Shown: positions 63,692 to 63,809 of the stretch, one piece after another
Position numbering within the stretch: position 1 is the first letter of the stretch
Layout: every line of letters begins with the position of its first letter
Origin: Eledone cirrhosa
Taxonomy: Eukaryota
NCBI GenBank assembly: GCA_964016885.1
Contig: OZ024742.1
Coordinates: 125,550,001 to 125,614,000, forward strand
Direction: 5' to 3'
Length of the DNA: 64,000 nucleotides
The notes under the pieces: model-generated
What the model was told of the DNA's origin: nothing
What the model saw: only the letters and a program-made list of their open reading frames with translations
Database searches by the model: none
Position numbers and translations under genes: made by a program

Positions 63692-63809
63692 TAGGAACCA
63701 GTAAGACCCCGGGGTCTTACTGGTTCCTATTACCCACTCTACTACCCTAAGTATTGAGTACTTTGGTGCGTTATGGTCCACCTGGTTCCTTACCACATTT
63801 CCTTCGTTA
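63692..63809 (+). mobile_element. Shortest palindromic miniature element
   Basis: TAGGAACCAGTAAGACCCC|GGGGTCTTACTGGTTCCTA plus family tail. Confidence 0.85.

Follow-up and report, generated by a model that had tools for sequence, protein, structure and literature searches.

A palindromic retroelement stub in Eledone cirrhosa centred on the predicted hammerhead cut of its parent family

A short palindrome embedded in (TA)n sequence of Eledone cirrhosa raises the question of why its centre should fall on the very bond at which a hammerhead ribozyme, itself absent from the locus, is predicted to cut. The palindrome lies in a stretch of 64,000 nucleotides (G000:C3:125550001-125614000 of a 3.0-Gb genome; the whole stretch is called the window here and provides the coordinates). 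An earlier note on this DNA had read it as a possible genomic footprint of self-cleavage in vivo, with precise hairpin deletion as the alternative.

The stub and its parent element

As that note had described, 63710/63711 (CCCC|GGGG) is the centre of a perfect palindrome, which has no spacer and spans 63691-63730. Its arms, given as 19 bp, are indeed perfect but measure 20 bp each (63691-63710 and 63711-63730); 17 bp of them (63694-63710) derive from the element, and the outermost ATA of the left arm merges into the (TA)n tract. The whole stub occupies 114 bp (63694..63807) with (TA)n on either side (Table 1), and the locus at 63691-63730 is a single unit, not a tandem array, and contains no catalytic core. 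The mirror arm was likely primed from the second target strand at an internal TTCC|TAT site. It is covered at low depth in contigs of the public run X21, which, as this run is maybe the source sample, speaks only weakly against an assembly artefact. Genome-wide there are 97 exact copies of the palindrome centre (one counted on both strands), and at least seven copies are 100% identical to the stub over 118 bp. The insert itself is an ordinary dead stub and, taken alone, an ambiguous one, since a 2-nt microhomology at the self-complementary CG step of the cut yields the same string.

Table 1. Parts of the palindromic stub, and further copies of its family in the window
Feature	Coordinates	Strand	Remarks
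Upstream (TA)n-rich target tract	63388..63693	.	Last bases ATA (63691-63693) pair with TAT of the internal start site, lengthening the palindrome
Inverted (mirror) arm, 17 bp	63694..63710	-	Copies RNA positions +1 to +17 past the predicted cut
Junction	63710..63711	.	Predicted hammerhead scissile bond (GUC|G) of the parent element, based on full-core parents and fold
Direct arm, 97 bp	63711..63807	+	First 97 nt of the predicted 3' cleavage product
One-sided "tail"	63728..63807	+	Between two internal reverse-transcription starts (about +18, about +97); about 77-80 bp
Downstream (TA)n tract	63808..64000	.	Extends past the window end
Diverged family copy, asymmetric junction	4320..4487	+	
Longer family copy, junction in -40 region	30624..30823	-	
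Longer family copy, junction upstream of cut, internal duplication	49910..50148	+	
Longer family copy, junction in -40 region	51983..52177	+	Left arm as in the copy at 54023, right arm as in the copy at 49910 (recombinant)
Longer family copy, junction in -40 region	54023..54218	+	

An exact 34-letter pattern from the tail occurs 25,042 times in the genome. Some of these copies extend on their upstream side through a long 3' region to the closing part of an ORF; others, as in autonomous copies, continue beyond the tail through a 5' UTR to where an ORF begins (306 matches for the latter). The head-to-tail array L368 consists of units of 3,542-3,543 bp with a 719-aa ORF comprising a reverse transcriptase (RT) and a C-terminal nuclease. 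The ATG of this ORF lies 190 nt 3' of the predicted cut, and window bases 63711-63809 match the unit at 97 of 99 positions, so that the stub sequence is continuous with an RT and GIY-YIG ORF, as in EN+ Penelope-like elements (PLEs). Read by eye, the ORF contains YRDD and VIYQC..AYIG motifs, DKT, a CxCX5C linker, and CxxC and CxH around E..N without CCHH, all of them listed for the Hydra clade, and RWR where that clade has RWK. Pfam and PDB sequence searches gave no match for the 719-aa ORF or for three ORF fragments, while the ORF weakly matches the GIY-YIG region of another ORF in the window (E=0.012). TA flanks on both sides in 19 of 19 exact copies tested indicate insertion into (TA)n, again Hydra-like. 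Judged by its motifs, the element is probably a Penelope-like retrotransposon of the Hydra clade.

The available text on that clade (Craig et al., 2021; PMC8557442) describes much of the same plan: a single ORF with RT followed by nuclease, the DKT, RW, CxCX5C, CxxC and CxH motifs, (TA)n targets, a hammerhead, an inverted 5'-truncated copy and a one-sided tail. The unit of 3,542 bp exceeds the length of generally <3 kb given there, which is a tendency and not a rule; the tail measures about 80 bp here and 30-40 bp in PLEs as described, and the U3-A8 core and the loop II of about 39 nt set the present family apart.

An inverted 5'-truncated copy stands beside the direct copy in the family at large, 67 of 99 copies sampled by their tail parsing as short palindromes, and long palindromes have inverted arms of 125-830 bp. 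Nearly all insertions use two internal starts, the inverted arm beginning at about +18 and the direct arm at about +97, both fused to (TA)n; an inverted arm with this same internal outer end, fused to TA, is present in 54 of 66 parsed palindromes from the tail sample. In the compound insertions L043, L330, L348, L350, L352, L353, L359 and L360 the inverted arm often starts from +97 instead of +18, indicating that either start can serve either target strand.

Two other classifications were considered and rejected. A MITE would have inverted repeats at either terminus and an invariant interior; here, the inverted repeat spans the left 40 bp only and the junction varies between copies. Non-LTR retrozymes form tandem short monomers, each with a full hammerhead, according to the accessible part of a recent preprint (bioRxiv 10.64898/2026.07.22.740005), whereas the locus is single and coreless. 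Elsewhere in the genome, L361-L367 (G000:C28:22822250-22826923) form a 233-bp tandem array of one template-jump unit (-33 to about +200) found on both strands, a satellite or retrozyme-like arrangement derived from the PLE 5' end and without catalytic core.

The predicted hammerhead and its cut

In the parents, stem I and a YUGANAA core are followed by a stem II whose loop measures about 39 nt; then come GAAA, a stem III of 5 bp closed by a palindromic loop, and GUC|GGGGU. A pattern for the intact hammerhead matches 1,002 copies in the genome. No window copy of the family carries a full hammerhead; the core and the 5' strand of stem I occur solely in longer parents at other loci of the genome. 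The earlier note had placed the cut of longer members at GUC|GGGGUC. GCCGTC does stand immediately 5' of GGGG, GAGG or GGGT at the matching position in the window copies at 50049, 52078, 54119 and 30708 (minus strand), and full-core parents agree, but the window copies are themselves coreless. With the parents as reference, the junction of the stub is their predicted scissile bond, and the palindrome thus begins, as had been proposed, at the first base of the predicted 3' cleavage product.

For the parent sequence at L276:4298-4410 the minimum free energy fold is a three-helix type I hammerhead junction with the C before GGGG unpaired, although its energy relative to shuffled sequences (z=0.17) means that folding energy itself is no evidence for a hammerhead. 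Across 12 aligned parent copies 98% of cells are paired, with GUC as the NUH triplet before the cut, and no compensatory changes occur among these close copies. The parent core has positions 3 and 8 paired, GAAA, and G10.1-C11.1. A U3-A8 core was found in 25 of 25 parents examined from the subfamily group with the word TTACT[GT]G and a C3/A8 mismatch in 21 of 30 CTACT and 3 of 9 ATAC parents examined, counts that include non-independent copies. Scanning the window for canonical CUGAnGA misses the family core because window copies are coreless and parents use U3-A8; Rfam gave no hammerhead match on the window and three parent loci, plausibly on account of the long loop II and the U3-A8 core.

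U3-A8 is a described variant of PLE hammerheads, which, in the available text of Cervera and de la Pena (2014; PMC4209133), are likewise type I, located in the pLTR, and share G10.1-C11.1 and the palindromic loop III. Unlike those hammerheads, the present one has a stem III of 5 bp, which would make a monomer fold possible. On this model, the predicted cut at GUC|G appears well founded, even though the window copies are without a core.

Junctions across the genome

Copies were collected with exact-match patterns, which overlook diverged copies; the tail-only sample comprises 99 of the first 100 matches listed, and the classes of short junctions described below likewise come from the first rows listed (contigs C1-C3), not from a random draw. 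The 99 tail-sampled copies include 67 short palindromes, 25 with no mirror arm within reach and 7 without the cut region, and none among the matches listed is centred on the cut (0/99). In 57 of the 67 palindromes, 45-104 bases separate the two G/C runs. Every palindrome of this sample has its own junction, which indicates that each insertion event makes its mirror arm anew.

Junctions fall most often about 40 nt upstream of the cut, a mode that sits within loop II of the ribozyme: both arms extend at least 33 nt upstream of the cut in 10,342 palindromes, and in the 36 examples examined the longer arm ends at -35 to -47 with a mode of -40. This mode is adjoined by the word TCAGT/TTAGT, which we take to be initiator-like, and is likely a transcription start; an RNA beginning there would be without half of its own ribozyme. 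An internal promoter has been described for Penelope (PMC2377424). An extra C, as a cap signature, appeared in one listing counted by hand (10 C versus 2 T), but is not claimed, as 36 junctions gave 3 C versus 2 T and the other arm may be the source of many of the Cs. We also considered a splice acceptor at -39 and discarded it, as the direct arms have no exon sequence in front of them.

Palindromes centred on the cut are found among the short junctions, defined as those with at most 20 bases between the two G/C runs. There are 356 of these among 10,391 anchored copies of the TTACT[GT]G group and 271 among 16,363 of the CTAC/ATAC group. Of the 356 we classified the first 100 listed, which came to 98 junctions once two both-strand duplicates were merged. 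Of the 271 we took rows 1-65, where merging two such duplicates and excluding two tandem repeats left 61 junctions. The cut class, in which both arms end within -2..+1 of the cut and from which six templated junctions with substitutions were excluded, comprises 61 of 98 and 24 of 61 junctions, together 85 of 159, with L237 and L412 as likely cut junctions left outside it. A class with a gap of 20 bases around an 8-bp self-complementary loop (AG|CT centre) accounts for 15 of 98 and 25 of 61, although L252, L383, L413 and L415 among them are not true AG|CT centres; the remainder numbers 22 and 12. Among these short junctions the comparison of centres that the earlier note had proposed gives a clear excess at GUC|G and is not uniform: in the TTACT[GT]G group the cut is the top class, and in the CTAC/ATAC group it equals the best microhomology class. 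A uniform null would place 5% in the cut box; as it ignores microhomology, the anatomy of the junctions matters more.

This anatomy is distinctive. Untemplated bases occur in 55 of the 85 cut junctions versus 11 of the 74 others (Fisher p=1e-10), and 33 of the 55 lie at exactly 0 on both arms, with the C before the cut included in only 2. Whereas 21 exact centres fall at the cut, the neighbouring CG step 3 nt upstream serves as a symmetric centre in just 0/98 and 1/61 junctions. In the TTACT[GT]G group, the younger of the two, exact blunt centres make up 20 of the 61 cut junctions, versus 1 of 24 in the CTAC/ATAC group. Some inserts at the cut (L152, L156, L254, L391, L397) resemble nearby arm sequence or are palindromic, which suggests templated insertion by a host end-joining polymerase.

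Joins that are not palindromic provide a separate view of the same position. A template-jump pattern, in which 5' UTR sequence is joined directly to a downstream unit, gave 13 matches representing 7 independent events. Five of the seven junctions are exactly on the first G past the cut, one is at -41 and one at -33. Hairpin deletion cannot produce such joins, and the alternative raised in the earlier note is disfavoured by them. In three of the five insertions (L356, L359, L360) the second junction, too, falls at the cut (p about 1e-4 at a 2% base rate), in L355 and L358 the second junction is unreadable, and L352 is discordant; in L327, L353 and L357 both junctions are concordant at -38 to -44. 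This concordance within insertions indicates that the RNA molecule itself sets the stop, which is used more than once in one insertion.

By scaling up, we estimate about 220 cut-centred stubs in the TTACT[GT]G group (2.1% of 10,391 copies) and 110 in the CTAC/ATAC group (0.65% of 16,363), or ~300 in the genome. Cut-centred insertions are therefore ~1-2% of copies, and the palindrome itself is the ordinary inverted 5' copy of Penelope-like insertions. The cut class is 3.3-fold commoner in the former group, whereas the AG|CT microhomology class is flat (0.52% versus 0.68%; ratio test p=4e-4). Cut-centred junctions are thus commoner where the U3-A8 core is paired than in the C3/A8-rich subfamilies, a comparison confounded by age and by the exact-match patterns. 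Mutants with an unpaired 3-8 position had impaired cleavage in the accessible results of Frangieh et al. (2024; PMC11167929), and by analogy the C3/A8 hammerheads may be inactive.

The tail word TATTGAGTAC is common to this family and a second (TA)n-inserted family, with copies at 49371-49520 (+) and 55660-55810 (-) of the window, which has a canonical CUGAUGA core and no G run. Thirty of its 46 short junctions were classified, representing 28 that are independent; 5 of these 28 are at the GUA|G cut, 4 of them with untemplated bases (crude p=5e-4), and 3 of the remaining 16 are also at the cut by eye. Most of its other short junctions are microhomology joins, and the second family is a weaker echo of the first, not a full replicate. 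Its long palindromes, too, terminate some 45 nt 5' of the cut, directly ahead of the core.

Origin of the stubs, known systems and neighbouring insertions

We suggest that the stub probably consists of two cDNAs that ran off the 5' end of a ribozyme-cut RNA and were joined end to end. By analogy with the Poseidon element of Anolis (PAc) in vitro, the nuclease would cut both target strands, and each 3' end would prime a cDNA at +18 or +97. Both cDNAs would copy towards the RNA 5' end and, as the junction statistics suggest, stop where the template ends: mostly at about -40, at the ribozyme cut in about 1-2% of cases, or far upstream on uncut read-through RNA, whose ends would give rise to inverted arms of 125-830 bp. 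At run-off the enzyme may often add untemplated bases, as in R2, before the cDNA ends are joined head to head, in the window copy presumably bluntly. After a cut only 97 nt are left to copy, so that self-cleavage would give, from this priming site, a dead stub in place of a new element. The footprint of self-cleavage in vivo proposed in the earlier note is largely supported by the hotspot, the untemplated bases and the direct joins.

Of the other origins that we weighed, each improbable, the least so is a stall of the RT at a folded but uncut three-way junction, with the stalled cDNAs then joined. The hammerhead centre is a structured junction, and stem III starts 2 nt upstream of the cut. However, the untemplated ends cluster at 0, away from both the unpaired C and the 3' edge of stem I; the 10,342 palindromes with longer arms read straight through stem III; and the frequency of cut junctions tracks a core pair that leaves the stems unchanged. 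We regard as somewhat less probable again that longer palindromes collapsed at the DNA level, by hairpin deletion or by microhomology at the self-complementary CG. Microhomology of this kind gives the exact string of the window copy and clearly makes other classes (AG|CT, gap of 20), and collapse may explain some exact blunt copies, the window copy included. It is at odds with the untemplated bases in most cut junctions, with the near absence of centres at other CG steps, with the non-palindromic junctions at the cut and with the concordance within insertions; decay of the CpG would account for about 0.2 of the 12 single A/T insertions observed there.

A real RNA end made in another way, from a minor transcription start at the G or by a host nuclease beside the bulged C, is a slightly fainter prospect. 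The -40 mode already records ends of a different origin, but the end considered here falls on the bond predicted to be cut in two families that differ in sequence, and it depends on the core pair. Least probable of all is that one cut-centred stub was amplified as a non-autonomous element, the excess at the cut being simply inherited. While the fully identical copies and the over-representation of exact blunt centres in the youngest group point in this direction, the exact copies comprise four source haplotypes, in the same mix as in other classes, and at least eight subfamily signatures by hand count, and the two samples hold 45 distinct cut-junction strings (25 and 20, some shared). CpG decay, CG microhomology and amplification from a single master each fail as a full explanation of the cut class.

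With run-off from ribozyme-cut RNA as the preferred origin, the stubs could be read as a genome-wide fossil map of the 5' ends of template RNAs. This wider reading, which we consider evenly poised between true and false, would have the hammerhead cutting its RNA in the germ line, with the cut (5'-OH) RNA serving as template for reverse transcription two or three times per insertion. Cleavage a short way 5' of the priming sites would abort transposition, and the ribozyme would be a brake that lineages tolerate losing (C3/A8) or bypassing (start in loop II).

The closest experimental counterpart is PAc, for which the available text of Frangieh et al. (2024; PMC11167929) describes, as here, two internal RT starts downstream of the hammerhead that define the tail, and a protein by which both target strands are cut and extended. 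The starts lie in the 5' UTR here and inside the ORF in PAc. The PAc hammerhead cleaves in vitro with assistance from the protein, but cleavage is dispensable in vitro, uncut RNA is the main substrate, and the same text reports no RNA-seq reads ending at the cut (PMC11167929); the rarity of the cut-centred class agrees with this, whereas the genomic junctions point to cut RNA as template in a minority of events, unlike in PAc. For R2, as far as presented in the accessible text of Eickbush et al. (2013; PMC3774820), the cut of an HDV-like ribozyme, a class other than the hammerhead, likewise sets the template 5' end, and 5' junctions contain untemplated bases added at run-off. There, the cut frees a full-length template; here, it lies 97 nt from the priming site and would result in a dead, palindromic stub of two cDNAs.

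The principle of reading a ribozyme cut from junctions is thus already known from R2. For PLE hammerheads, function was called unclear and junctions were not mapped to the cut in the accessible text of PMC8557442, and evidence in vivo was absent according to that of PMC4209133. Hundreds of independent junctions on the predicted bond provide such evidence from DNA alone, give a per-lineage read-out of ribozyme activity and support a two-primer, one-template model for the inverted ends of Penelope-like elements. The same junction analysis was not found in the literature covered, to which subscription journals and preprint supplements did not belong. The insertion is of a known kind and carries new, testable evidence on the function of PLE hammerheads.

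The window contains further insertions of related kinds. The region 49910-54218 is a tandem duplication of ~2.03 kb, each unit consisting of a 5'-truncated PLE of another family (RVT_1 match, E=7e-8) and a stub of the family studied; the arm mix of the middle stub (51983-52177) is what an unequal crossover of two stubs would be expected to leave. The duplicated PLE carries a minimal hammerhead-like motif with a UUGAUG core at its 3' end (51690-51740 and 53715-53765). Just upstream of the stub at 63694, a palindrome with 67-bp arms (88%) occupies 63187-63321, and its sequence also flanks L002, L011 and L097, indicating a third stub family common to these TA tracts. A perfect palindrome with 80-bp arms and a 1-nt spacer at 8297-8457 is probably the stub of another family, and a 642-aa open frame at 40810-42738 (-) with a weak GIY-YIG match (E=5e-4) represents another PLE family. 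Finally, 32461-32531 (-) gives a tRNA-like Rfam match of 49 bits, possibly the head of a SINE.
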